A stretch of 64,000 bases of DNA. It comes from Chitinophagales bacterium. GTDB taxonomy: Bacteria > Bacteroidota > Bacteroidia > Chitinophagales > LD1. The notes beneath the pieces are model-generated. The model made no database searches and was not told the DNA's origin. It worked only from the letters and a program-made list of their open reading frames with translations. Within the stretch, counting starts at the first letter, position 1; each line of letters opens with the position of its first letter. Positions 10,873-48,218 of this stretch are shown here, piece after piece. The position numbers and the translations under genes were made by a program. The stretch covers positions 192,996 through 256,995 of the forward strand of contig JBGAHI010000006.1 in assembly GCA_044226285.1 (NCBI GenBank), in the 5' to 3' direction.

Positions 10873-12525
<1,653 letters not shown>

Positions 12526-35509: not shown

Positions 35510-35833
35510 ATGGATGTATTATCAGTAAATGACGGAGATTTCGTAACACTAAGTGAAGGGGCCGCTTACACAGCTGCATATAGAGATCAATTCCCTAGTA
35601 TGGATGGTGTTATTAAGGGTCTCTTTGTTGGAAGAAATAAGATTAACTCTTTACTCAATCAAGAAAATGTTGTAGGATTAAGAATTTACTTCGGGTTAAA
35701 TGAAGAAGGGGTGCCAAATCTTGTAATCGTAGGCGCTAAAGCTACCGGTGACGATGTTACAAGTTTAATTGTAGAAAAATTAAGACCTTGTCCACCTACA
35801 TGTGGCAATTCGAATAGTTTAAATGGAAATTAG
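35510..35833 (+). CDS. Unknown 107-aa cytoplasmic protein with Cys-containing C-terminal tail
   Basis: No signal peptide. Ends RPCPPTCGNSNSLNGN. Its last codons overlap the next gene's ATG (ATGGAAATTAG). Confidence 0.55.
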   Translation: MDVLSVNDGDFVTLSEGAAYTAAYRDQFPSMDGVIKGLFVGRNKINSLLNQENVVGLRIYFGLNEEGVPNLVIVGAKATGDDVTSLIVEKLRPCPPTCGNSNSLNGN

Positions 35834-36488
35834 CACTTCGTTTCTTTTTCTTCAAACTGCTACTTTTGCAAGTTTAATTTTATTAATAGTCTCTGTGATT
35901 AAATTCAATGTTATTCGCAGAGACTATTATTATTTCTTTGGATTTATTTTTTTAATCTTAATAGCAACAATTGGAGACTATGTTTTACGTCCAAAGTTTA
36001 TTCCGCAAAACAACAATATACTCTACAATATTTATACAATGCTTGAGCTTCCATTTTGTGTGTATATATTAAACGAGCTACACTACAAGAAACTTCAAAA
36101 AAAAGTGTTAATTGTTTTAGGAATATTTTTTTATTCGATAGTACTTTTTGAAGTATTTAAAACAGGGATAGTTGTATCATTTTACTTAACAAACTATATA
36201 GCTTCCTTTTTTGAGATTTTGATTTGTATGTATACTTTATATGACTTACTTGAAACACCAAGCGAATCTCTTATATATATGTCTGTTTCATTTTGGTTTT
36301 CATTAGGCTTCTTATTATACAATGCTGGAACAACCTTCCTTTTTCTTCTTCTTGACAAACTTTATATTTTAGATCAAACATTAGCCTCATTAGCCTTTAA
36401 CCTTTTAAATTCAATTTTCTCTATTCTTTTTTATATTTTTCTTGCCATAAGTATCTTATGCTTGAAACCAAAGACTCTCTCCTCTTAA
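35823..36488 (+). CDS. Orphan ~7-TM integral membrane protein
   Basis: 221 aa made up almost entirely of about seven hydrophobic helices. Overlaps both neighbours. Confidence 0.6.
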   Translation: MEISTSFLFLQTATFASLILLIVSVIKFNVIRRDYYYFFGFIFLILIATIGDYVLRPKFIPQNNNILYNIYTMLELPFCVYILNELHYKKLQKKVLIVLGIFFYSIVLFEVFKTGIVVSFYLTNYIASFFEILICMYTLYDLLETPSESLIYMSVSFWFSLGFLLYNAGTTFLFLLLDKLYILDQTLASLAFNLLNSIFSILFYIFLAISILCLKPKTLSS

Positions 36489-37246
36489 TCCTATTTTTCG
36501 GCACAAGTAGTCTCATCCTTTTCTTTGGGGGAATGTTGCTTTTTGTATTCAAATACCAACGTAAGGTTTTATTGCATCAGCAAGAGCTAGCTCGAAAAGA
36601 AGAAGAAAAGCAAAATGAGTTGCTTCGTGCCGTTATCGAATCGCAAGAAAACACACAGAACTTTATTGCTAAAGAATTGCACGATGGAATTCTCCAAGAA
36701 ATGGCAACATTAAGATTCAGCACGGCTCATATTTCTAGTCAACTAAAAAAACACGAATTACCCTTAGATACAATCGAACAACTAAAATTCGATATTGATA
36801 GTTCTATAAAGAATATACGTCAACTTTCACATAGTATTCTACCTTCAAAACTAGAAGAAGATGGACTTGCAGCTGCTCTTCAAAGTATTTCTGCTAAGAT
36901 TGACAGTTCTACAATTATCAAATCTACTACAACTGTGATTGGGGAGGTTTTTGAGCAAGATAAAGCTATAGAACTTGCATTTTTCAGAGTGGCTCAAGAA
37001 TCAGTTCAAAATGCAGTTAAGTATGCAGAAGCAAAAAACATTAACCTCATACTCGAATATTCAACTCATCGCTGTTGCCTCACCATTAGTGATGATGGTA
37101 AAGGATATAATGTTCTATCTATCGCATCAAACGGAATAGGATTAAAAAACATGCAATCAAGAGCAAAAGTTGTTGATGCCAAAATTGAATTTTCTTCAGA
37201 ATTGAATAAAGGCACAAAAGTAGTCATGGAAAAAATGTATATTTAA
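36458..37246 (+). CDS. Histidine kinase, HisKA_3/NarX-type, single TM, no recognisable sensor domain
   Basis: One TM helix (LLLILFFGTSSLILFFGGMLLFVF), a coiled coil, the H-box AKELHDGILQE, and HATPase_c motifs (QESVQNAVKYA, ISDDGKGY, GIGLKNM). Confidence 0.85.
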   Translation: MLETKDSLLLILFFGTSSLILFFGGMLLFVFKYQRKVLLHQQELARKEEEKQNELLRAVIESQENTQNFIAKELHDGILQEMATLRFSTAHISSQLKKHELPLDTIEQLKFDIDSSIKNIRQLSHSILPSKLEEDGLAAALQSISAKIDSSTIIKSTTTVIGEVFEQDKAIELAFFRVAQESVQNAVKYAEAKNINLILEYSTHRCCLTISDDGKGYNVLSIASNGIGLKNMQSRAKVVDAKIEFSSELNKGTKVVMEKMYI

Positions 37247-37267
37247 TGCGAAGATCAATATCAGCAT

Positions 37268-37921
37268 ATGCCCATAAATGTAATGGTGGTTGACGACCAC
37301 ACCCTATTCAGAAAAGGACTCATAGCTATTCTATCCGATATCCCAGAGCTTAATATTGTTGGTGAAGCCGAAAACGGAAAGGAATTTCTTTCAAAATATT
37401 CCGCAATAAATCCGGATATCATTTTAATGGATATGGATATGCCCGTTTTAAACGGTATTGATGCTTTAGTTAAATTGCGTGAGCGCAGAAACTCACCACC
37501 ATGTTTAATGATTTCTATGCACAACGAAGAAAAGTTTGTGCTCAAAGCCATAGAAGCCGGAGCAAATGGATACCTCACCAAAGATTCAGATCCTGAGATT
37601 ATTCACTTAGCAATACAATCTATTATATGTAATGGTTTTTACTTCGATGAGAAAGTAAATCTGTTGTTGGTGAAAAATATGGCCAAAAAGAAAAAAATTG
37701 TTCCAAAATTTGAATCAGGAAATCTGGTGCTTAATGCCAAAGAGATTGAGCTCATCAAACATATTGGAGAAGAATTGACCAGTGCAGAAATCGCAGAGAA
37801 AATGTTTTGCAGTGTTCGTACTATAGAAGGCATCCGCACCGAGCTCATCAAAAAGATTGGCGTTAAGAATGCTATTGGCTTAACTATTTATGGAATTAAA
37901 AGTGGAATTATTGCTGTTTAA
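37268..37921 (+). CDS. NarL/FixJ (LuxR-type HTH) response regulator
   Basis: REC domain (VMVVDDH...DIILMDMDMP...TKD) plus LuxR HTH (LTSAEIAEKMFCSVRTIEGIRTELIKKIGVKN). Confidence 0.9.
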   Translation: MPINVMVVDDHTLFRKGLIAILSDIPELNIVGEAENGKEFLSKYSAINPDIILMDMDMPVLNGIDALVKLRERRNSPPCLMISMHNEEKFVLKAIEAGANGYLTKDSDPEIIHLAIQSIICNGFYFDEKVNLLLVKNMAKKKKIVPKFESGNLVLNAKEIELIKHIGEELTSAEIAEKMFCSVRTIEGIRTELIKKIGVKNAIGLTIYGIKSGIIAV

Positions 37922-38139
37922 TTTTCCATCTCAATTATTTTCACTATTCTTATAGTATGTTTATCACCAAAACATATTGTTTTCTTTCTAACACATTTGA
38001 AATGTGTTGCTGTTGTTGTCGATAAGCGCAACAGCCATTTCTATTTTTTGCTTTTTTCTTTTTATGGCTTGTTCAAATGAACGTAATCAACGTTTGCTTT
38101 CCAAAAAAGCACATTTATCAAGTTTTAAAAACAAAAATC

Positions 38140-38595
38140 ATGGCACATATTTGCCCTATTAACGGAGAAAAAATTAACGAACCAACAGTTAGAACAGTTG
38201 CAGGAATTGTTGTTATTCTCTCGGCTTTGGGAATTTACTTCCACTTGTCATTTATTTTCTTATTTCTCGGATACGATTTTTTTGTTCGAGGATTTTATAA
38301 GAAAGAATATAGTCTGCTTCGGTTTATTGCGATACAAATAACTAACCTATTTAACTTTAATGAAAAGCTGATTGATGCAGCTCCAAAGCGTTTTGCGGCA
38401 AAAATCGGTTTCTTTTTTTCTATTTTAATTCTTGTATTGTTCCTTCTTCAACAATTCTATCTTGCATTAATCGTAACTACCATTCTGATTCTATGTGCTA
38501 TTTTAGAATCGGTTTTCGCTTATTGTTTGGGTTGTCAGTTCTATTCCATCTATATTACAACAAAAGACTACTTTCAAAATTCAATAAACCAATAA
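38140..38595 (+). CDS. DUF4395 family membrane protein
   Basis: MAHICPINGEKINEPTVR start, DFFVRGF, PKRFAAKIG and a C-terminal CLGCQFY motif, as I recall for DUF4395. The ATG at 38140 is preferred. Confidence 0.7.
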   Translation: MAHICPINGEKINEPTVRTVAGIVVILSALGIYFHLSFIFLFLGYDFFVRGFYKKEYSLLRFIAIQITNLFNFNEKLIDAAPKRFAAKIGFFFSILILVLFLLQQFYLALIVTTILILCAILESVFAYCLGCQFYSIYITTKDYFQNSINQ

Positions 38596-38635: not shown

Positions 38636-38905
38636 TTATCTAATCAAGGTTAAACTTCCTTTTTGAAGTGGCATCTTATAACCGTTGATATAGGTAAGAT
38701 AGAGTTCATAAACATAAACTTGAGGGTTTTGTAATACACCACGGAATTTACCATCCCATTGGAAGTTCATGTCTTTCGACTCGAATACTTTTTCGCCCCA
38801 ACGATTGAAAACAATCATTTCCATTTCTAACCACACCTTTTTGTTTCCAAAAATTTCGAAGTAATCATTAATACCATCTCCATTTGGAGTAAATGCATTT
38901 GGCAC
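38636..38905 (-). other. T9SS type B sorting domain (gliding motility-associated C-terminal domain, CHU_C)
   Basis: VPNAFTPNGDGINDYFEIFG...VFNRWGEKVFES...WDGKFRG...PQVYVYEL...KGSLTLIR. Confidence 0.85.
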
Positions 38906-41900
38906 ATATAATTGATATGTTGGATTAACACGGATTCGAACCGTATCGTATGCTGTACAACCACTATCACTCACCACAGCAACTTCATAAACAATATTGT
39001 TTACAGTATTAGAAACAGGATCTTGACAATCGCCACACGTTAAGTAATATGGAGGTGACCAAACTATATCAGCCATATTTCCACCAACAGCATCCAAATG
39101 AATTGGAATGGTTTCTCCCAATTCAACTAATGTATCTTTTGGAGAAGCACTAATATCAAAGGTATTACCAACAATAATAATGAAGCTTGAGTCTTTCTCG
39201 CATCCGTTTTGATCGGTTACTGTAACTGCATAATTTCCTGCACCCAATCCCCCAATATAACTTCCTGTTGTACCATTCTGCCAAACATAATTATATGGAG
39301 GTGTTCCACCAGAAGGGAATGTATATACAGAACCATTTTTCAAAGGTTCACACAAAACATCTCTTGTTATTGGATTAATGAATAACTCAGGAATCTGACC
39401 CACATTAACCGATGCTGTTGCAGTACATGAATTGGCATCCGTAATTGTAACAGTATAACTTCCAAAGGCCAAACCTGAAATATCCTCTGCCGTTGAACTA
39501 TTGCTCCAAGCATACGTATAATTTGGTGTTGCGCCACTCACAGTTAAGTTTATTGATCCATCTGTTCTACCCGGACAAGTAACTGGCGTTGAAACAGAGT
39601 TTACTAGAATTGCAGTAGGCTCTCCAACAACAATGGACGTTAACGTTGCAGAACACTGCCAAGTATCATACACAGTAACAGCATAAGTTCCTGCACTTAG
39701 TCCACATTGGTCTTGAGTTGTAGGAAGTGCATTCGACCAAACATAAGAATAAGGTGTTGTACCTCCGGTAACCGTTAAATCAATACATCCATTGGCACCA
39801 CCATTACAGGTAACATTTGTAATAACGTTCGATAATTGTACCTGTGTAGGTTGAGTAATTTCAATGGTATCTAATCCCCATACTCTGCAACCATTTCCAT
39901 CAGTTACTGTAACAATATATTTGCCCGCTACTTTGTTGGCGATATCTTCAGTTGTTTCAGCACTCGACCATTGATAAGTATAAGGCGTTACTGTTCCTAT
40001 CACCGTTAAATCAATTGACCCATTATTTCCTCCAAAACAGGTTACATCAATTTTGTTGGTATCTAATGTAGATGTTGCAGGAGGAGAAGGAACATTCACT
40101 CGAATACTATCGATACATCCATTTAAATCGGCTGCAATAAAGGTATGAAGCCCACTGCTCACCGGTGAAAAACTTCCGTTAAATTGTACTGGCAATTTAT
40201 AGTCGTATGTATATGCATAACCAGGAGTGCCACCAGAAGCAACAACTGTTACACTACCATTAGCACCTAAGTTACATGTTGGTGCTACTACACTTGTTGT
40301 ATCTATATTCAATGCAGTTGGTTGAGTGATGGTTTGTGATACCGTTGACGTACATCCTTTTTGGTCTTTAATAGTGATAGTGTAGCTATTATTACAAAGA
40401 GCATTAAAAGAATCCATATTTTGATAATTCACTCCATCTATTGAAAACTGATAAGGCAAAGTACCTCCGTTTCCGGTAACTCGAATCATACCATCGCAAT
40501 TATTGAAACAGCGAACATTGCGGAAATTAACTATAGATACAGAGAGTTGTGTTGGTTCGTAAATGAAAAACGAAACAATAGAGTCGCAGTTATGTGCATC
40601 GCGAACAGTAACAGTGTGATTACCTGCTGTTAGAGAAGCAAATACATTGTTCGTTACAAACGTATTGGTAGCATCTATAGAATAGGTATATGGCGCTGTT
40701 CCACCGGTTGCTGTTAATGTTATCCCTCCATCATTACCTCCGAAACACGATACACTATCTAACATCACAATTGATGGCGCTAATTTGGTAGGTTGTAACA
40801 CTTGCGTAATCACGGTATCGGTACACGCATTTTGGTCTGAAACAATAACAGTATAAGTTCCCGCAGTTAAGTTAGTAGCAATACTATCCAATTCAGTTGG
40901 AATTTGAAGCCATGAATAAGAATAAGGGTAAATACCTCCATTTACTGCTAAAACAATTCCACCATCATTTCCACCAAAGCAAGAAACAGCATTTGTTCTA
41001 AGCGTATCACCACGAACAGCATTTGGCTGCGATACATTAATTGATAATGAATCTACACAACCATTGCCATCGGTAACAATAGCAGTATGCGCTCCGGAAC
41101 TAACTACATTAAACGTACCTCCGGCTTGGTTTACACCATAATCTAAAGCATAGTTATATGCCAAGGTTCCGCCCGTAGCATTAACTACAATCTGTCCGTC
41201 ATTGCCTTTGAAACATTTTGGAGGTGTAGAAGAAACAAAAAGTAAATCGAGTAAACTAGGTTCTGTAAGTGTAACTGTAAGTGTAGTTGTGCAACTCTTA
41301 CGATCTTTCACTGTGATAGTGTATGTCCCTGCTGATAAATTTGAAAACGAATCAGCTGATTGGAATGTAACTCCATCCTTAGAATATTGATATGTTCCAT
41401 TTGCTCCAGAACCAACCACTTTAATCATTCCATTGTTGCCCCCGTTACAAGAAACATCGCGTTTAGTAACTAAAGCAATTGTTATTGCTGAAGGTTGAGG
41501 TACAGTAACACTAATTGTTGTATCACAACCATGCGCATCTACTAAACCTATAGTGTAAGTTTGTGCAGTGAGGCTCGAAAATACTGGAGAAGATTGACCG
41601 GCTCCCCCATTAATCGAATAGGTATAAGGAGCAGCACCTCCGCCACCGGTAACTGTAATTTTTCCATCTGTTCCGCCAAAACAAGACACCGTATCAATAG
41701 ATGCGAGAGTTAAAGAAACTCTTGGTGCTTGTAGGATAGTATATGTTGCAGTATCTTTACAGCCATTTAAATCAGTAATGATCGCATTATACGTATTGGC
41801 ATACAAACCCTGCGCAATACTATCGAGTTCCGATGGTAATGCAGGCCAATTATAAGTGTATGGATAAACACCTCCATTCACTTTTAATATGATTTGCCCG

Positions 41901-44900
41901 TCATTGGACCCAAAGCAAGAAGGAGGTACCGTTTTCACAGTATCTATAACAATAGGCAATGGAGCAGTAATCGGCACTGTACCTGTAGCAGTACATCCAT
42001 TACCGTCTACTACAGTTACACTATAATTGCCACTGCATAAATTAATCCCTACAGTTGAATCCTGCACAGGTGTTGTACTCCACACAAATTGATAACCACC
42101 GCTACCACCTTTTGCATCTACTCTTGCACTTCCATCACAAGTATTGAAGCACTTCATATTCACTGTATCTAAGAATTGAATTTGCAATAAATCGGGTTGC
42201 GAAATAGTTCCTGATGTTGTTGTACTGCATCCTGTCGCATCTGTAACAGTTACCGTATAAGTTCCCGGACCCAAGTTTTTCAAACTATCAATAGTTGGTC
42301 CTGTATTCCAATGATAAGCATACGGTGCCGTACCTCCTATCGCTTTCACTTTAATGATACCTGTAAGTTGACCAAAACAAAACGGATTAACACTTTTCAC
42401 AATATAAGCTTGAACACCACCTCCAGAACTTAAAGATGTTGCAGAAGTAGCTGTACATTTCGAAGTTTGATCCGTCACTGTTACATTATATGTTCCGGAT
42501 TGAAGTCCTGTGATAGTTTGCGTTGAACCTGAAGGATTCCAAGCATAAGTATACGTTCCGGAAGGCGTTGGATTAACGGTTATACTTCCATTCGGACCAC
42601 AAGTAGCATCCACTTTTGTAAACGTTAATGCAGGTGGAGTAGTTACTGTGATTGTAATCGCTGTATCTTTTTTACAATAGCCCTTTGGACTATAGCCTGT
42701 TACTAAATATCCGGAAGTTACCGGTGGTTTAGCAATAACATCTGCACCTGTTGGATTGCTTAAATAAGCTATAGGCGACCACATATATGTACTGGCACCA
42801 CTCAAAATGATGTGTGCACTATCTCCTGGACAATATGAAGTATTCCCTGTATAACTTAATACCGGTGTAGGTTCTACAATTAAATAAATAGAATCGTATG
42901 GCGACCATCCGCAACAATCTGTTTTAATTCGAACTTTAATTTTGAAAGTACCTGTTGTATTGAACGATAAATTTGTCAAATTTTGGAAAGTGCTTCCAAA
43001 ATAAGTATTGGGTATTGTTGATCCGCCAAAGTTCCAATCGAAGGTATCTGCAGAGGCAATAACAGCATTGAAATTGGCTTTTGCGAATTGACATAAATAG
43101 AATGTATCTGTTGTTCCAATTTGAGTAGCTGTGGTTTGTATATTAGGTGCAAAAGAGCCTTGATCAATAGCAATATATACAAATCCCGTATAGGTATTAG
43201 CCGCATATTGAATGTCTTTTCTACCTATTGTTGTGTATTGAGTTGTGTGTGTTATTCCGGTACTTGTTGGAACTGATGCTCCCGATCCGGCATTCCACGC
43301 ACCTGATGCAGTTGCTGTTAGATTATCATTTGTAAAGGTACATGAAATATTATCGCATTTAATTACCGGCTGAGCCGCTAAGTTGAAGTTAGTAATTGAA
43401 GTAACCGGAGCAGTACCGCTATTGAGATAAACAATGCCTGAAATTCCATCGGCTCCACTACCTCCATTGCCACCATTACCTCCTTTACCTCCTGCTCCTC
43501 CATTTCCGCCACGACCAACTTCACTAGTACAAACCGAGGCTCCAATGCCACCTGCTCCACCAGCACCTCCAATACCGCCTGCTCCACCAGCACCACCATT
43601 TCCAAATAATCCACTTACTATGTTGCAATCAATAAAATTAGAATTTGCACCATTGTTATTTAAGAATACAGCAAATGAACTTCCTCCACCGTAACCTCCC
43701 GTTCCAAAAGTACCGGCAGAACCACCGCCTCCGCCTCCGCCTCCGCCATTGCCTGGACCATTATCGCAAAACGTACAGGTTTGGCGACCACCGCCACCAC
43801 CACCGCCACCGCCACTAGCGCCAACACCATTGGTTCCATTCGTTCCAAGACCTCCTGCATTATAGTATCCTGCAACAATAGCACCAGCAGATCCGGGAGT
43901 ACCATTCGCCCCATTTGCACCAGCTAAACCAGCTGCTCCATTTGCTCCAGCACCTCCTGGATCACCGCTACTTCCACCACCGCCACCATTTCCTCCGGCT
44001 CCTTGTGCAGAACTTCCTCCACTTGCACCACTAGCCACACTTGAATTACACTCATCCATACCTGATGCACCTCCCCCACCGGCACCTCCATTCAGTCCGG
44101 TTGCTGCTGCTCCAGGTGAACCATTATTGGCCGTTCCCGTAACTGCCGCTCCTCCGCCTCCTCCGGCCGCTCCTCCGCCTCCGCTTCCGCCATTGCCTCC
44201 TGCACCCCCCGGATTACCGGAACTAAACGTACATGTTCCTCCATCACAAGATCCACCACCACCGTTTAAACCTGCAGCTCCGGCAATACCGGCATTTCCA
44301 GGGACACCCGATTGGCCTGCAGAAGCATTACCTCCTAAAATCTGACATCTTACGAAGTTATAATTGCTGGAATTTGTAATATGAAATACATAATTGCTAT
44401 AGCCATATACATCTCCCCCTGAAATGGCCGGGCAGTTGGCATTCTGAAAAGTAAGATCTTGAAAACGAACATAGCTTGCATTGTTCAAGTATACTGCCAC
44501 TAATCGTTTATTTGTGCCAGACCCTTCCATGTTTAAAGTAGATCGGGTAATGGTTGTTGCACCTGCCAAACTCGATTTTTGCCAGTTTGAAGCAGGATCA
44601 AAGCCACCTTCAATGGTTGTGTTACTACCAATATTAGTAATTGGATAATCTATGGTATAATTTCCAATGCCTAATTTTACATGCGCATTGTTACATTGTG
44701 CTAATGCTAATGCACCGGCTAAACTTGCCGGGTTAGCCTTTGTTCCATTCCCAGTGCCACTCACTGTACCATAAATAACCGTACAACTTTGTGATGGTGG
44801 TGGATTATTCAATATTACTTGTACAGTTGCAGGATTACTAGGACAATTATTGGCATCATATGCTGTTACAGAATACGTTGTTGTTGCACCTGGTGCTACT

Positions 44901-46417
44901 TGAGGGTTCTGACAAGTTGGACAAGGCATACCTGTTGTTGGCGACCACTGATACGTTACACCAGTTGAACTACTCGCATTAAGTTGAGTGGAATCGGTAG
45001 GTGAACAAATCGTAATAACCGGAGGATATGCACTAATTGTTGGCATTGGATTTCTCGTTACCAACACATCGTCTGTACGCTGACAACCACTTGGATAGTT
45101 TGCGGTTACAGTATACAATGTAGTAACAGAAGGGTTTACGGGCCACGTAGCTCCACTATGTGTATTTGTACCATCAGACCAAGTATAAGTTGCTCCTGAA
45201 CCTGCTGTAGCAGTAAGTGTGGTAGTTTGACCCGGACAAAGCTTAACGTCTGGTCCTGCGTTTACTACAGGATCAGAAGAAGGATTGACAATTACAGTAT
45301 ACGGATAAGTATTGGTGCCATAAATCTGGCAATGGTTATCTTTTACTTGAACAGTGAAAGTATAAGTTCCTACATCACTCTGGGTTGGTGCCCAACAAAA
45401 AGTACCCACCGGACGACTTCCACTGGTTGTTGTAAAAGTTGCACCGGGAATAGCATTATTGGAAATCATGGTTACCACATCGGCAGCATCACCATCGGCT
45501 GAATTGATAGTGAAACAAGAATTCGAACAAGCCGTCATAGTAAAAGTATTGCTGGCTGTACCGTTCACTCCACTTGCTGTAGGTAAATTGTTTGAACAGT
45601 TTACTACTATAAATTGCATATCGCGAACTACTGTTCCAATCTTAACTCCATTTCTATATTCGTCTACTTGCACCTTAACCACCGAAACTTGTGTACTGCT
45701 AGGTGTAAAACTTAATTGACCGTTTGAGGAGTTTAAATTGAAAGCACCGGTGGTAGCCAACGGACTTGTGGCACTATATCCCCCTTTGTAACTTACATAC
45801 GTCCCTACACCGTTTTCACAAGGCACAAGCGTAAAAACGAGAGAATCGCCATCGGAGTCGGTGGCACCGTGATTATAATTTGACAATTGATTGGCACAAT
45901 AAAAAGGAACCGGATCATTGAGGAATTGCGGGGAATTATCACATGACGCAAGGGTATTATTCAGTGTTGCTTCTACTAAAATATTTTCGTTGGAAGGATT
46001 GGTGAGTGAAGTAATAGCAGCATTTCTACAACATTCAGTTACCGTCATTACCCAATCGCTACCACAACCTGCAGGTAGATTTAAAATACCCTGGTATGTA
46101 TATTTCTGAACCCCATATTGGTTTGACCCATTACATTGCGATTGTATACTTGGACAAAGTGGAGTGATATCGATAGGTTGTCCAAGTTGCGTTAAGTTGA
46201 TGGAACTGGATACCCCACATTGCGCGGACGAATAGTTAAGGGTATAGGAACCGCTTGGTGAGATACCGTTACAATCTCGATACAACTTAAGTGTGACTAG
46301 GTACCTATTAGGACCTAAACATTCATAAGTCAAATCCATTCCCATCACGTGACTGGCTTTGGACGAAATGGGAATCAAAAACATCAATAGCAGTGAAAAG
46401 TAAATTGCTTTTTTCAT
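38636..46417 (-). CDS. Giant (2593 aa) cell-surface adhesin-like protein, SprB-repeat family, T9SS type B (gliding CHU_C) C-terminal domain
   Basis: Signal peptide, then an N-terminal HVMGMDLTYECLG..YRDCNG domain. Ig-like modules (NAGPDVKLCPGQTTTLTA), a beta-helix-like segment and a 300-aa Gly-rich insert follow. Then come about 15 repeats of C-x-G-x3-G-x-I..GG..PY.Y.W...G.Y.VTVTD..GC and a C-terminal VPNAFTPNGDGINDYFEI domain. Confidence 0.9.
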   Translation of the reverse strand: MKKAIYFSLLLMFLIPISSKASHVMGMDLTYECLGPNRYLVTLKLYRDCNGISPSGSYTLNYSSAQCGVSSSINLTQLGQPIDITPLCPSIQSQCNGSNQYGVQKYTYQGILNLPAGCGSDWVMTVTECCRNAAITSLTNPSNENILVEATLNNTLASCDNSPQFLNDPVPFYCANQLSNYNHGATDSDGDSLVFTLVPCENGVGTYVSYKGGYSATSPLATTGAFNLNSSNGQLSFTPSSTQVSVVKVQVDEYRNGVKIGTVVRDMQFIVVNCSNNLPTASGVNGTASNTFTMTACSNSCFTINSADGDAADVVTMISNNAIPGATFTTTSGSRPVGTFCWAPTQSDVGTYTFTVQVKDNHCQIYGTNTYPYTVIVNPSSDPVVNAGPDVKLCPGQTTTLTATAGSGATYTWSDGTNTHSGATWPVNPSVTTLYTVTANYPSGCQRTDDVLVTRNPMPTISAYPPVITICSPTDSTQLNASSSTGVTYQWSPTTGMPCPTCQNPQVAPGATTTYSVTAYDANNCPSNPATVQVILNNPPPSQSCTVIYGTVSGTGNGTKANPASLAGALALAQCNNAHVKLGIGNYTIDYPITNIGSNTTIEGGFDPASNWQKSSLAGATTITRSTLNMEGSGTNKRLVAVYLNNASYVRFQDLTFQNANCPAISGGDVYGYSNYVFHITNSSNYNFVRCQILGGNASAGQSGVPGNAGIAGAAGLNGGGGSCDGGTCTFSSGNPGGAGGNGGSGGGGAAGGGGGAAVTGTANNGSPGAAATGLNGGAGGGGASGMDECNSSVASGASGGSSAQGAGGNGGGGGSSGDPGGAGANGAAGLAGANGANGTPGSAGAIVAGYYNAGGLGTNGTNGVGASGGGGGGGGGRQTCTFCDNGPGNGGGGGGGGGSAGTFGTGGYGGGSSFAVFLNNNGANSNFIDCNIVSGLFGNGGAGGAGGIGGAGGAGGIGASVCTSEVGRGGNGGAGGKGGNGGNGGSGADGISGIVYLNSGTAPVTSITNFNLAAQPVIKCDNISCTFTNDNLTATASGAWNAGSGASVPTSTGITHTTQYTTIGRKDIQYAANTYTGFVYIAIDQGSFAPNIQTTATQIGTTDTFYLCQFAKANFNAVIASADTFDWNFGGSTIPNTYFGSTFQNLTNLSFNTTGTFKIKVRIKTDCCGWSPYDSIYLIVEPTPVLSYTGNTSYCPGDSAHIILSGASTYMWSPIAYLSNPTGADVIAKPPVTSGYLVTGYSPKGYCKKDTAITITVTTPPALTFTKVDATCGPNGSITVNPTPSGTYTYAWNPSGSTQTITGLQSGTYNVTVTDQTSKCTATSATSLSSGGGVQAYIVKSVNPFCFGQLTGIIKVKAIGGTAPYAYHWNTGPTIDSLKNLGPGTYTVTVTDATGCSTTTSGTISQPDLLQIQFLDTVNMKCFNTCDGSARVDAKGGSGGYQFVWSTTPVQDSTVGINLCSGNYSVTVVDGNGCTATGTVPITAPLPIVIDTVKTVPPSCFGSNDGQIILKVNGGVYPYTYNWPALPSELDSIAQGLYANTYNAIITDLNGCKDTATYTILQAPRVSLTLASIDTVSCFGGTDGKITVTGGGGAAPYTYSINGGAGQSSPVFSSLTAQTYTIGLVDAHGCDTTISVTVPQPSAITIALVTKRDVSCNGGNNGMIKVVGSGANGTYQYSKDGVTFQSADSFSNLSAGTYTITVKDRKSCTTTLTVTLTEPSLLDLLFVSSTPPKCFKGNDGQIVVNATGGTLAYNYALDYGVNQAGGTFNVVSSGAHTAIVTDGNGCVDSLSINVSQPNAVRGDTLRTNAVSCFGGNDGGIVLAVNGGIYPYSYSWLQIPTELDSIATNLTAGTYTVIVSDQNACTDTVITQVLQPTKLAPSIVMLDSVSCFGGNDGGITLTATGGTAPYTYSIDATNTFVTNNVFASLTAGNHTVTVRDAHNCDSIVSFFIYEPTQLSVSIVNFRNVRCFNNCDGMIRVTGNGGTLPYQFSIDGVNYQNMDSFNALCNNSYTITIKDQKGCTSTVSQTITQPTALNIDTTSVVAPTCNLGANGSVTVVASGGTPGYAYTYDYKLPVQFNGSFSPVSSGLHTFIAADLNGCIDSIRVNVPSPPATSTLDTNKIDVTCFGGNNGSIDLTVIGTVTPYTYQWSSAETTEDIANKVAGKYIVTVTDGNGCRVWGLDTIEITQPTQVQLSNVITNVTCNGGANGCIDLTVTGGTTPYSYVWSNALPTTQDQCGLSAGTYAVTVYDTWQCSATLTSIVVGEPTAILVNSVSTPVTCPGRTDGSINLTVSGATPNYTYAWSNSSTAEDISGLAFGSYTVTITDANSCTATASVNVGQIPELFINPITRDVLCEPLKNGSVYTFPSGGTPPYNYVWQNGTTGSYIGGLGAGNYAVTVTDQNGCEKDSSFIIIVGNTFDISASPKDTLVELGETIPIHLDAVGGNMADIVWSPPYYLTCGDCQDPVSNTVNNIVYEVAVVSDSGCTAYDTVRIRVNPTYQLYVPNAFTPNGDGINDYFEIFGNKKVWLEMEMIVFNRWGEKVFESKDMNFQWDGKFRGVLQNPQVYVYELYLTYINGYKMPLQKGSLTLIR
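39133..42601 (-). repeat. About 15 tandem SprB-type repeats (~77 aa / ~231 bp each) within the adhesin CDS
   Basis: Recurrent CFGGNDG.I....GG..PY.Y.....L.AGTY.VTV.D..GC... The first Cys codon is at 42601 and the 15th repeat's Cys codon is at 39352. Confidence 0.85.
43436..44335 (-). repeat. Glycine-rich low-complexity insert (residues ~695-994) of the adhesin
   Basis: About 130 Gly in 300 aa by hand count. Contains runs of G-X-Y/GGX triplets, two Gly9 tracts and seven Cys. The antisense strand gives Pro-rich shadow ORFs. Confidence 0.9.
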
Positions 46418-46443: not shown

Positions 46444-48000
46444 CTAGTATCTTCTTGTACGTCTAGTAGTTCCTCCAAATCCAAGAACACCAAGCAAACC
46501 TCTTGTTACTTCTCGAATAATAATTTTCCCGGCAGAACTGTTGGCAACATCACTTATGAATCCACCAGCCTTTTCTATGACTGATTTATCATTAGTTGGG
46601 TTGCCTGTTACTTCCTGACTTTCATCATTATTTTCAGTTTGTTCTTGTGGTGTTAATTTTTGTGTGAGCATTTCATAGGCGCTTTCGCGATCAATTTCTT
46701 CGTTATATTTCGCTACTAACTTCGAGTTTTCTACAATTTCATTAATTTCTGAAGGGGTTAAAACATCCATTCTAGATGCAGGTGGGCACATCAAAGTAGC
46801 GGCTAAAGGAGAAGGAATACCTTTCTCGTTCAACACTGAAATGAAGGCTTCTCCAATACCAAGACTAGTCAATGAATTCTCCGTATCATAAAATTCTGTT
46901 TCAGGATAATTCTCGGCAGCTAATTTAATGGCCTTACGATCTTTGGCAGTAAATGCACGAAGAGCGTGTTGCACTTTCATTCCTAATTGTGCCAAAACTG
47001 AATCTGGAATATCGGCCGGGTTTTGCGTGCAAAAGAAAACACCAACACCTTTAGAACGAATCAGTTTAATGATAGTTTCAATTTGATTCAGCAGAGCTTT
47101 AGAGGCTTCATCGAAAATTAAATGCGCTTCATCAATAAAAATAACCAGTTTAGGCGCATCTGTATCTCCTTCTTCCGGAAATGTGGCATAGATTTCAGCC
47201 AACAAACAAAGCATAAATGTCGAGAATAGTTTCGGACGATCTTGAATGTCGGTTAATCGTAAAATAGAAATTAATCCTTCGCCTTTATCATTCATTCGAA
47301 CTAAATCATCTACTTCAAATGATTTTTCGCCAAAGAATGTATCTGCGCCTTGCTGCTCGAGTTCAATAATTTTTCGAAGAATTGTAGAAGCTGTTGTTGA
47401 TGCAACTTTACCGTACTCTTTTTCGAACTCATCCTCTCCTTCTGCAATTGAATAATTCAACACTTTTTTGAAGTCTTTTAAATCCAAAAGTGGCATTTGA
47501 TTATCGTCACAATACTTGAAAATAATGGCTACAACACCTTCCTGAACATCGTTCAATTCAAGTATTTTTGAAAACAAAACTGGACCAAACTCCGATACAG
47601 TTGCCCGTAACTTCGCACCTTTTTCTTTCGATAAGGTAAGAAATTCAACCGGATTTCCGTGAACGGCAAAATCAACACCTATTTTTGCCACACGGTCATT
47701 TATTTTGTCATTCAATGTACCCGTCTGCGCAATTCCACTTAAATCACCTTTAATGTCCATCAATAAAACAGAAACCCCTTTCGCTGAAAGGTTTTCTGAA
47801 ATCATTTGTAATGTTTTAGTTTTTCCTGTTCCGGTGGCACCTGCAATTAACCCGTGACGGTTAAACGTTTTAAGTGGAGCTTTCACTTGAAGCCCTTCTA
47901 TCGCTTCACCATCTAACATAGCAGCTCCCATTACAATGGAATCTCCACTGAAGGTATATCCTTGCTCAATTATCTCTTTAAATTTTTCTTTGTTTGCCAT
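46444..48000 (-). CDS. DUF853/HerA-like P-loop ATPase (YjgR family)
   Basis: Walker A GATGTGKT, Walker B LVIFIDEAH and FFCTQNPADIP motifs. The ATG at 48000 is preferred. Confidence 0.8.
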   Translation of the reverse strand: MANKEKFKEIIEQGYTFSGDSIVMGAAMLDGEAIEGLQVKAPLKTFNRHGLIAGATGTGKTKTLQMISENLSAKGVSVLLMDIKGDLSGIAQTGTLNDKINDRVAKIGVDFAVHGNPVEFLTLSKEKGAKLRATVSEFGPVLFSKILELNDVQEGVVAIIFKYCDDNQMPLLDLKDFKKVLNYSIAEGEDEFEKEYGKVASTTASTILRKIIELEQQGADTFFGEKSFEVDDLVRMNDKGEGLISILRLTDIQDRPKLFSTFMLCLLAEIYATFPEEGDTDAPKLVIFIDEAHLIFDEASKALLNQIETIIKLIRSKGVGVFFCTQNPADIPDSVLAQLGMKVQHALRAFTAKDRKAIKLAAENYPETEFYDTENSLTSLGIGEAFISVLNEKGIPSPLAATLMCPPASRMDVLTPSEINEIVENSKLVAKYNEEIDRESAYEMLTQKLTPQEQTENNDESQEVTGNPTNDKSVIEKAGGFISDVANSSAGKIIIREVTRGLLGVLGFGGTTRRTRRY

Positions 48001-48218
48001 ATCCTGTTTAAATCTTATTTTGACCTTGAAAAATAACACAAAACATGCATAGATTGAAGTTTAAGACCCATTTATTCTGAACAATTTCATAACATCGTTG
48101 TGGAGAATTCCACTTTCGTATAAACACTATTTAGAACCATAATAAATAATATTTTATTCGGATTCGTTTTACGCTTAACAACAATACATTAGACATAATA
48201 TTTTCAAAACAAGAAACT

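Follow-up and report, generated by a model that had tools for sequence, protein, structure and literature searches.

Introduction

Few natural glycine-rich bundles of polyproline-II (PPII) or polyglycine-II (PGII) helices are known; they comprise the snow-flea antifreeze proteins (AFPs), Obg, the aceto(phe)none carboxylases, gp38, ALK/LTK, the Bxb1 tail proteins and, by prediction, the PGRS domains. Here we describe a glycine-rich stretch that may belong to this architectural class. It lies in a giant secreted protein of a type IX secretion system (T9SS), encoded in 64,000 nucleotides (nt) of DNA from a Chitinophagales bacterium (assembly GCA_044226285.1, contig JBGAHI010000006.1, positions 192,996 to 256,995). 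This whole stretch of DNA is called the window below, and nucleotide positions are those of the window. We put at roughly 0.6 the probability that the glycine-rich stretch is the core of a conserved T9SS module in which a PGII bundle is built into a β-helix and serves as a rigid display or binding platform.

PGII bundles are described in snow-flea AFPs, in gp38 of phage S16, in ALK/LTK and in Obg, and are predicted for PGRS (bioRxiv 10.1101/2023.11.25.568672; PMC9436101; PMC13243192). The known bundles are defined by GGx and Gxx triplet patterns (bioRxiv 10.1101/2023.11.25.568672; PMC9436101). The snow-flea AFP (2PNE/3BOG) has 81 residues folded into six helices of 10-11 residues, arranged in two layers (PMC13243192); a flat PGII bundle exposing Ala, Asn, Ser and Thr is the principle by which it binds ice (bioRxiv 10.1101/2023.11.25.568672; PMC13243192). 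ALK GlyR has 14 short helices of 4-9 residues (PMC13243192), and gp38 (6F45) ten helices of 6-9 residues. Glycine-rich PPII bundle domains also occur in gp33 and gp29 of phage Bxb1, in entry 9D93 (PMC13243192). In the PGRS of mycobacterial PE_PGRS proteins, AlphaFold predicts packed PGII helices with Gly facing inward and a polymorphic surface laid over the Gly framework (PMC9436101).

Results

A glycine-rich stretch with a period of three residues

The stretch comprises residues 695-994 (nt 43436-44335, minus strand) of the open reading frame at 38636-46417. Glycine makes up 43.0% of it, compared with 9.4% in the rest of the same protein, followed by Ala (14.3%), Asn (9.3%) and Ser (9.0%); Pro accounts for 2% and there are seven Cys. 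An initial reading of the DNA and its translation, hereafter the sequence-only reading, had estimated the glycine content at about 43% and had listed runs of glycine triplets interrupted by cysteine-containing islands. The computed value agrees with that estimate, and every one of the listed runs and islands is present verbatim in the translation.

Gly-Gly pairs three residues apart number 89, against 54.7 ± 4.2 in shuffled sequences (z = 8.1; none of 10,000 shuffles scored as high), and pairs six residues apart number 77, with 54 expected. In-phase Gly runs span 5-14 triplets, including runs of 8, 8, 14, 7, 8 and 9; a strict Gxx run of eight triplets occupies residues 701-722, and up to 14 in-phase triplets follow one another at residues 806-845. 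Beyond the period of three, the autocorrelation of Gly is weak (0.2 at lags 78-81). Gly codon usage is mixed (GGA 55, GGT 51, GGC 20, GGG 3). The only DNA repeats found in the segment are short and imperfect (6, 9 and 27 nt); slippage-prone repeats were considered as a source of variation and rejected on this ground.

The stretch is the core of a widespread module

The sequence-only reading took the stretch for an insert inside one giant adhesin. It is not private to this protein: it belongs to a module of about 540 residues (aa 545-1085; 43163-44785, minus strand) that is found whole in at least 200 protein clusters and is made of a β-helix, two Gly-rich excursions and a C-terminal β-sandwich. 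The boundaries, set from homologues, phmmer alignments and AlphaFold2 (AF2) models, run from C545, right after 'PPPSQS', to about residue 1085. A word-index search with residues 540-1100 returned 235 proteins, the top 70 or so of which are 650-820 residues long, align over 96-99% of the query with 45-52% of residues identical and consist of a signal peptide, the module and a type-A T9SS sorting domain. When phmmer was run against all of 1.84 billion cluster representatives (clusters at 50% identity), 846 matches were obtained at E ≤ 1e-3, 510 at E ≤ 1e-10 and 201 at E ≤ 1e-30; most of the matches listed align end to end in a single stretch (query 1-549). The module stands directly behind the signal peptide in 153 of 225 members examined, in T9SS proteins much smaller than the host protein, while 41 of the 225 share the architecture seen in the window: an N-terminal domain, the module at about residue 550 and then, mostly, SprB repeats and CHU_C. 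Named genomes carrying it belong to Flavobacteriales, Crocinitomicaceae, Saprospiraceae and unclassified Bacteroidota metagenome-assembled genomes (MAGs), a list that is a lower bound on the taxonomic range. At least six loci were confirmed in a scan of a genome collection, and two of six homologous loci bear lake-derived isolate labels (Erken, and 'ME2002', which we take to be Lake Mendota).

The module is found in T9SS cargo throughout, and always towards the N-terminus, far from the C-terminal cell-surface anchor. It had been pictured as the distal binding surface of the adhesin; in the window protein, however, some 520 residues of other domains lie N-terminal to it. Pfam and NCBIfam searched at E ≤ 10 hold no family for the module, for its β-helix part or for the Gly core. 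In sequence and profile searches of the PDB nothing came up besides artificial GGS linkers, collagens and T9SS C-terminal domains (CTDs), with no match to the module, and tblastn against 50,697 phage records found no relative of it. A literature search likewise found no description of the module, nor anything joining PGII with T9SS or Bacteroidetes. The suspicion that it was undescribed in SprB-family proteins has therefore held, with neither a Pfam or NCBIfam model nor a paper found. Judged by sequence, the module is an unnamed, unannotated extracellular family that is carried by Bacteroidota T9SS cargo and comprises no fewer than 200 clusters when sequences are grouped at 50% identity.

Predicted structure

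Models of residues 541-1090 and 690-1000 were computed with AF2 from an input alignment of 83 sequences. The longer model has a mean predicted local distance difference test score (pLDDT) of 94.1 and a predicted template modelling score (pTM) of 0.83; residues 690-1000 modelled alone reach 93.8 and 0.85, all five models lying within 92-94. As modelled, the module opens as a probable right-handed parallel β-helix, which the chain leaves twice between the last rungs, for 219 and for 56 residues. The N-terminal β-helix part (aa 545-694; 44336-44785, minus strand), assigned from DSSP and weak Foldseek matches, includes rungs A (638-660) and B (674-696). Excursion 1 (aa 695-913, 219 residues; 43679-44335, minus strand), delimited by DSSP and pLDDT, the Gly columns and the indel map, separates rung B from rung C. 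The most conserved element of the module, a core motif GGGGGGGGG-RQTCTFCDNGPGN-GGGGGGGGG (aa 869-899; 43721-43813, minus strand), lies within it, with near-invariant columns and a pLDDT of 98.

Past excursion 1 the β-helix resumes with rung C, SFAVFLNNNGANSNFIDCNIVSG (aa 914-936; 43610-43678, minus strand), which has the same motif and the same DSSP pattern as rungs A and B: one strand of 7-8 residues and then two short strands of 3-4. Excursion 2 (aa 937-992, 56 residues; 43442-43609, minus strand) has a pLDDT of about 98 and no DSSP strand; it consists of two GGx runs of 7-9 triplets and a turn, GASVCTSEVG, and its GGx columns are invariant and free of indels. We take a further strand, at residues 993-998, to open a fourth rung (D). 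With the C-terminal β-sandwich, which DSSP places at residues ~1019-1082, it makes up the last part of the module (aa 993-1085; 43163-43441, minus strand; strands assigned by DSSP at 453-458 and 479-542 in the numbering of the model). The rung sequences are visibly alike (RLVAVYLNNASYVRFQDLTFQNA / SNYVFHITNSSNYNFVRCQILGG / SFAVFLNNNGANSNFIDCNIVSG / SGIVYLNSG...).

Within residues 695-913 and 937-992 of the AF2 models DSSP assigns almost no helix or strand. Confidence in the excursions is nonetheless mostly 94-98 (85-98 in excursion 1) and dips only at four indel loops, so that the two excursions are predicted to form a compact domain without α-helix or β-sheet. Several expectations of the sequence-only reading can be set against these models. 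The rung-like strands that it had glimpsed are real, appearing as the three-strand DSSP pattern at residues 638-660, 674-696 and 914-936. A connection of the Gly stretch with a β-helix is borne out in that DSSP rungs and Foldseek matches tie the Gly segment physically to one. Structure prediction, proposed as a check, gave a high-confidence fold with almost no DSSP helix or strand in the excursions, and the disorder that would have spoken against a bundle was not seen (pLDDT 94 for the whole module, 93.8 for the Gly part alone). An irregular loop is implausible for 275 residues in view of this high confidence, the lack of α- or β-structure, the fixed glycines and the intolerance of indels.

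A Foldseek search of the PDB with the whole model gave only right-handed parallel β-helices among its top matches: rhamnogalacturonan lyase, pectin methylesterases, iota-carrageenase and tailspikes. The scores are weak (E from 7e-3 to 0.1, template modelling (TM) score 0.1-0.2, probability up to 1.0), which is consistent with a match limited to the β-helix part of about 150 residues. One could envision, given these neighbours, that the module is a β-helix polysaccharide lyase or hydrolase to which the Gly domain is attached as a structural appendage; a weak PelX match of the cap motif in the homologue P0001 and four invariant residues of the β-helix part (E603, K614, D654 and R690) would suit such an enzyme. 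The structural matches, however, do not fall below E = 7e-3 or exceed TM scores of 0.1-0.2, no carbohydrate-active or β-helix model of Pfam or NCBIfam is hit at E ≤ 10, there are only about six rungs, and conservation is strongest in the Gly core rather than in a cleft. We consider an enzymatic function improbable.

Searched alone, the Gly core retrieved nothing significant from the PDB, the only two entries being 9d93_Qb and 9d93_Qa (E = 2.7 and 6.2, TM score ~0.1); Foldseek may be insensitive to architectures of the PGII type. Entry 9D93 is the tail tip of mycobacteriophage Bxb1; chains Qa and Qb may or may not be its PPII-bundle proteins gp33 and gp29. Nor did Foldseek in the PDB yield a superposition on a solved PGII bundle (2PNE/3BOG, 6F45, ALK GlyR, 9D93). 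A BFVD search with the Gly core gave no significant match either (best E = 0.014, TM score 0.13). Among the first entries of that list, none of them significant, are collagen-repeat and 'glycine-rich domain' proteins along with PE-PGRS-like ones and minor-tail proteins of mycobacteriophages, which hints at no more than composition and local states of the PPII kind.

The excursions could also be irregular, Gly-rich coils of the same β-helix, that is, a β-roll or an extension of the solenoid. Such a view would explain why true rungs bracket them, with rung C standing amid the Gly region, and why the whole model matches β-helices throughout; in addition, an older proposal treats PGRS repeats as a β-roll (PMC5054227). 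Yet no strand ladders are assigned by DSSP across 275 residues at a pLDDT of about 95, although the same program finds them in the flanking rungs. The model of the Gly part alone has no β-helix match in the PDB, and the period is three residues, with no periodicity of coil length and no GGxGxD Ca-binding motif. A Gly-rich solenoid thus seems unlikely.

Conservation and selection

Among 81 homologues, conservation in the core is about 90% for the Gly columns, against an average of 47% at the non-Gly positions of the triplets (x positions). In a hidden Markov model alignment of 182 diverse full-coverage members (40-60% identity), the long Gly runs are essentially indel-free and indels are limited to four loops, at residues 727-735, 757-772, 788-795 and 805-816; these loops and the x positions are the variable elements of the core. 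Invariant non-Gly motifs include GDPG (818-821), GFWxPG (850-855) and GTDG (861-864), as well as SSFGxY, NGxN and CxxEIG, and RQxCxFCDxGPGN is invariant at residues 878-890, between two invariant G9 runs. Conserved in the C-terminal part are FNL..QPEI, C1026, W1041 and Y1076.

Selection was assessed by comparing the window gene with two relatives from a JGI metagenome (loci L009 and L010; DNA identity 92% and 95%). Within the core, 50 synonymous changes and one nonsynonymous change fall in the 129 Gly codons (ω, the dN/dS ratio, 0-0.013). For the 173 non-Gly codons of the core ω is 0.10-0.12, and for the adjacent β-helix 0.018. These counts and contrasts indicate that the region is translated and constrained, and that the identity of the glycines is under strong selection; the x positions appear several-fold more relaxed than the Gly positions in these alignments. 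The possibility that the segment is variable junk in close strains, raised at the outset, can be dismissed, as the Gly register is kept and the Gly codons are under purifying selection. We regard it as extremely likely that the Gly-rich region is a conserved, folded and selected domain.

The same data bear on the idea that the region is a disordered or flexible low-complexity linker whose AF2 confidence is an artefact of repeats. Its extreme composition, 43% Gly plus Ala, Asn and Ser, would be in character, as would the short imperfect 6-, 9- and 27-nt repeats in the DNA. The length of linkers normally varies freely, however, whereas this region keeps its Gly register virtually without indels in 182 members at 40-60% identity. 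It contains invariant motifs (RQxCxFCDxGPGN, GDPG, GFWxPG, GTDG), its Gly codons have accumulated 50 synonymous changes for one nonsynonymous, and five models agree at pLDDT 94-98. A linker is, in our opinion, very improbable.

Comparison with close relatives of the window protein shows where the core varies. Two proteins (P0125 and P0134) that are 96-97% identical to it overall differ at 17 and 12 core positions, all but one of them non-Gly. A third, P0131 (locus L001, 890-8266), is more divergent. Its gene segments flanking the core have 89% and 86% DNA identity to the window gene, and its protein flanks (aa 541-690 and 991-1230) are 97-100% identical, but its core (aa 693-990; window 43442-44335) is only about 61% identical, falling to 30-33% in residues 751-810. 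This core has a 16-residue deletion in the loop at 757-772 and an altered Cys loop, and it has lost C790, C881 and C884. Its dN/dS is 0.22 (0.42 for residues 751-870) compared with 0.016-0.04 in the flanks, and its dS is 1.45 compared with 0.27-0.9. The sharp boundaries and the raised dS suggest that recombination has put a divergent allele in place of the core, and speak less for plain fast evolution; on this single pair of sequences, the core may be replaceable as a cassette. The variant keeps the Gly framework, which again hints at a conserved scaffold with a changeable surface. Elsewhere in the two proteins, residues ~2191-2340 of the SprB stalk (window 39400-39850) are 77-83% identical, most of the stalk being above 90%; this patch may reflect repeat shuffling or another mosaic segment.

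Cysteines

C545, the first residue of the module (window 44783-44785), is present in 95% of members and C1026, in the C-terminal β-sandwich (43340-43342), in 93%; 163 members have both and 17 only one. The two are candidates for a disulfide that closes the module, to judge by their co-occurrence. Cysteines of the core are less regular: their occupancy is 37% for C724, 46% for C729, 26% for C790, 41% for column 805, 22% for column 865, 55% for C881, 75% for C884, 69% for C931 and 41% for C963, and members have from 1 to 14 of them. The pairs that co-occur best are 545-1026, 724-963, 790-865 and 881-884. The window protein has no Cys at columns 805 and 865, and its C790 is apparently unpaired. 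The proposal that the bundle is disulfide-stapled can therefore be kept for subfamilies but not for the family as a whole: with core Cys columns occupied in 22-75% of members and 1 to 14 Cys per member, staples appear to be an optional reinforcement of subfamilies and not to define the fold.

Host protein and genomic context

The host gene (38636-46417, minus strand) encodes a 2593-residue secreted T9SS type-B cargo protein of the SprB/CHU_C, 'gliding motility-associated' kind, as judged from the reading frame, its translation, Pfam and TIGR04131. The exact protein sequence is on record in NCBI, and close JGI relatives are labelled 'gliding motility-associated-like protein'. A putative Sec signal peptide, MKKAIYFSLLLMFLIPISSKAS (aa 1-22; 46352-46417, minus strand), was recognized by eye. 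Between it and the module (44786-46351, minus strand) lie a Cys-rich N-terminal domain (aa 23-375) and two PKD/Ig-like units (aa 376-544), the latter resting on a weak K319L-like PKD match in Pfam. Downstream of the module, a stalk of about 16 SprB-type repeats of some 70 residues each (aa 1266-2415; 39173-42622, minus strand) was delimited by Pfam (PF13573, 15 stretches, E = 9e-116) and by a jackhmmer self-search (~16 units). The protein ends in a CHU_C/T9SS type B C-terminal sorting domain (aa 2505-2593; 38639-38905, minus strand; PF13585, E = 2.1e-15; TIGR04131, E = 9.6e-13). By these sequence matches nothing sets the host protein apart from other T9SS cargo of the SprB/CHU_C class.

The Cys-rich N-terminal domain (window 45293-46351) starts 'SHVMGMDLTYECLG...YRDCNG' and has no significant match in a Pfam search. 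Of the 225 family members examined, 41 have it ahead of the Gly module, which makes it a second unannotated, recurrent domain of these giant T9SS proteins.

Directly upstream of the adhesin gene lies a gene for a HerA-like ATPase (46444-48039, minus strand; PF05872, E = 5e-179), and downstream one for a DUF4395 protein (38077-38595, plus strand). The same two genes flank the adhesin gene at L009 and L010, while at L001 DUF4395 is downstream and the upstream gene has no Pfam record; the shared order has no obvious functional link to the adhesin. Farther downstream, past DUF4395, is a HisKA_3 histidine kinase/LuxR-type response regulator pair (35823-37921, plus strand), preceded by a 221-residue reading frame without Pfam match. 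The product of the GroEL gene of the window (10879-12525, plus strand) is identical to MBL7801950.1/MFN8317327.1 ('MAG: Chitinophagales bacterium'), which assigns the window to the genome of an uncultured member of the Chitinophagales.

Discussion

A PPII/PGII-type bundle was among the folds first suggested for the Gly-rich stretch, and it fits both the lack of DSSP helix and strand and the period-3 Gly pattern. Two hallmarks of the class are present: glycine recurs at every third residue in runs of at least two turns (z = 8.1, two G9 runs, 182 members), and residues 690-1000 give a compact, confident fold in which DSSP labels almost everything as 'other'. We consider it probable that the Gly core is of the PGII type. 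Neighbouring rungs of a β-helix are about 4.8 Å apart. Because each excursion starts and ends between adjacent rungs, the excursions must be antiparallel hairpins.

The two excursions would together form a PGII (PPII-type) bundle of about ten antiparallel helices, each of roughly 17-26 residues. Excursion 1 would contribute some eight of them, a count taken from the pLDDT dips and the phase of the glycines: helices at about 697-722, 735-758, 772-788, 798-815, 820-845, 855-878 and 889-912, and one more to make the number even. Excursion 2 would add a single PGII hairpin. The two invariant G9 runs could be interior helices, with Gly on all three faces, joined by the CxxC turn; GGx helices would then lie at the edges of the bundle and Gxx helices at its periphery. 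Optional disulfides and the conserved CxxC turn may pin the ends of the hairpins. Such a bundle might be a rigid, protease-resistant platform, which is the most speculative step of this proposal, on whose invariant Gly framework the variable side chains and loops would make up a ligand- or surface-binding face, kept at a distance from the cell either through the stalk of SprB repeats or straight from a T9SS anchor.

The Gxx runs also call collagen to mind, and one might suppose that they assemble between molecules into a triple helix, so that the adhesin becomes a trimer. The strict run of eight triplets at 701-722 and the 14 in-phase triplets at 806-845 are of this kind, and collagens and collagen-like fibrils are the best composition-level matches in the PDB profile search. 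The geometry, however, is wrong for it: a return to the adjacent rung needs antiparallel hairpins and collagen chains are parallel. Most of the sequence is GGx or poly-Gly, which breaks the rule of one Gly per triplet, and Cys loops and a rung interrupt the runs; Pro is at only 2%, no Pfam match to Collagen (PF01391) was found at E ≤ 10, and AF2 folds the monomer compactly (pTM 0.85). We find a collagen-like trimer scarcely credible.

Several points weigh against our reading of the stretch as a PGII bundle that serves for display or binding. PGII geometry has been deduced by excluding other folds with the help of DSSP, pLDDT and the Gly period in the models, rather than from φ/ψ angles, helix lengths or packing. 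The confidence of AF2 may be too high where Gly sequence is repetitive. Some in-phase runs reach 14 triplets, which far exceeds the helices of known bundles, and the topology may differ from the ten-helix scheme. The x positions have dN/dS below 1 and positive selection, rejected as an account of them at ω 0.10-0.12, is not seen among the closest relatives. Finally, housekeeping genes surround both the window gene and the gene for P0001, with no conserved partner among them and no functional hint.

The comparison with described systems places the module near several of them. Like the PGRS, it has GGx triplets such as GGAGGNGG in a surface-exposed bacterial protein and, if our reading of the fold holds, packed PGII helices whose inward Gly framework carries a variable surface. 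PE_PGRS proteins, however, have a PE domain and use ESX secretion. None of the marks of that family (PE domain, mycobacterial origin, ESX-5) is found in the module, which has no PE domain and belongs to a Chitinophagales protein of the Bacteroidota with a Sec signal peptide and a T9SS CTD. PGRS tolerate large indels, whereas the register of the module is fixed and almost free of them. Unlike PGRS, too, the module is nested in a β-helix and has two invariant G9 runs, and searches of Pfam and BFVD gave no sequence or fold match between the two.

The snow-flea AFP resembles the module closely in local sequence style. In each, Gly makes up about 45% of the residues and Gxx triplets are interspersed with GGx ones, and both have disulfide staples and antiparallel PPII helices, the last being putative in the module. 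The module differs in its size (~275 residues), in its in-phase runs of 17-26 or more residues, in its poly-Gly helices, which imply more than two layers, and in its fusion to a β-helix; there is no Foldseek match to the AFP, and the disulfides of the module are not conserved. ALK/LTK GlyR shares with it poly-Gly runs that require hexagonal 'honeycomb' PGII packing and an extracellular position beside a β-rich domain and, presumably, a ligand-binding role. The partner domain, however, is TNF-like in ALK GlyR and a β-helix here, and neither the module nor its Gly core has a Pfam match to the ALK-type Gly_rich family PF12810 at E ≤ 10 or a Foldseek match to it.

Phage S16 gp38 and Bxb1 gp33/gp29 are alike in another respect, as conserved Gly motifs forming a PGII scaffold alternate with variable specificity segments; these proteins are distal parts of an adhesion device, to which the module can be likened. 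Unlike in gp38, the closest relatives of the module vary only modestly, and purifying selection acts on this variation. Homology to a gp38-type tip finds no support in our searches (no tblastn match in phages, no significant BFVD match, no PDB match to 6F45). Pectate-lyase-like β-helix proteins, for their part, may be compared with the N-terminal 150 residues and with rungs C and D in the predicted three-strand pattern, the cap motif and the Asn/Cys stacks, although none of the Pfam β-helix families matches the module. We know of no described β-helix with excursions of 219 and 56 residues on a Gly framework between consecutive rungs.

The similarity to snow-flea AFP, gp38, ALK GlyR and PGRS is thus one of architectural class and not of family membership. 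By analogy, the module most likely works like PGII bundles while being a member of no known family. We found no described counterpart for the nesting of a bundle between rungs, for a register fixed in this way, for the G9-turn-G9 core or for helices of this apparent length. There is about an even chance that these features amount to a new class of PGII architecture, in which some ten antiparallel helices of unusual length, two of them all-Gly and interior, are bundled in several layers and grow out between β-helix rungs. It would be the first such domain in proteins secreted by Gram-negative bacteria, would number hundreds of members among environmental Bacteroidota and may provide an exchangeable recognition or ice/crystal surface.

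What such a bundle would do is a more tentative matter. With the same PGII fold it could bind ice or crystal surfaces (as an antifreeze, in ice adhesion or on minerals) after the manner of the snow-flea AFP. Its x positions are mainly Ala, Asn, Ser and Thr, and lake-derived labels are attached to two of the six homologous loci. There is no sign, however, that the family is confined to the cold; its x positions vary and do not make up a conserved regular array, and no known ice-binding protein was matched by Foldseek in the PDB or by Pfam. A role of this sort strikes us as quite unlikely. An antifreeze-like protein of an Antarctic Flavobacterium (PMC13413566) was also considered and set aside as unrelated, being of the β-sheet ice-binding type. 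By analogy with gp38 and with the proposals made for PGRS, we favour a rigid display or binding platform and rate ice or crystal binding and an enzymatic role lower. Binding or display as the role of the module nevertheless stays a tentative assignment.

PPII/PGII bundles are under study as a third building principle in protein design. If our reading of the module as a PGII bundle is true, a large bacterial family would supply many natural PGII sequences of fixed register, with a Gly core that is confidently predicted on its own, and it would offer a case from nature in which a PGII bundle is grafted into a β-helix. For the biology of T9SS and gliding, it would mean that many surface proteins of uncultured Bacteroidota, freshwater and environmental, carry close to their outer end a recurrent, unannotated module that is a concrete target for studies of binding, ice interaction and structure.

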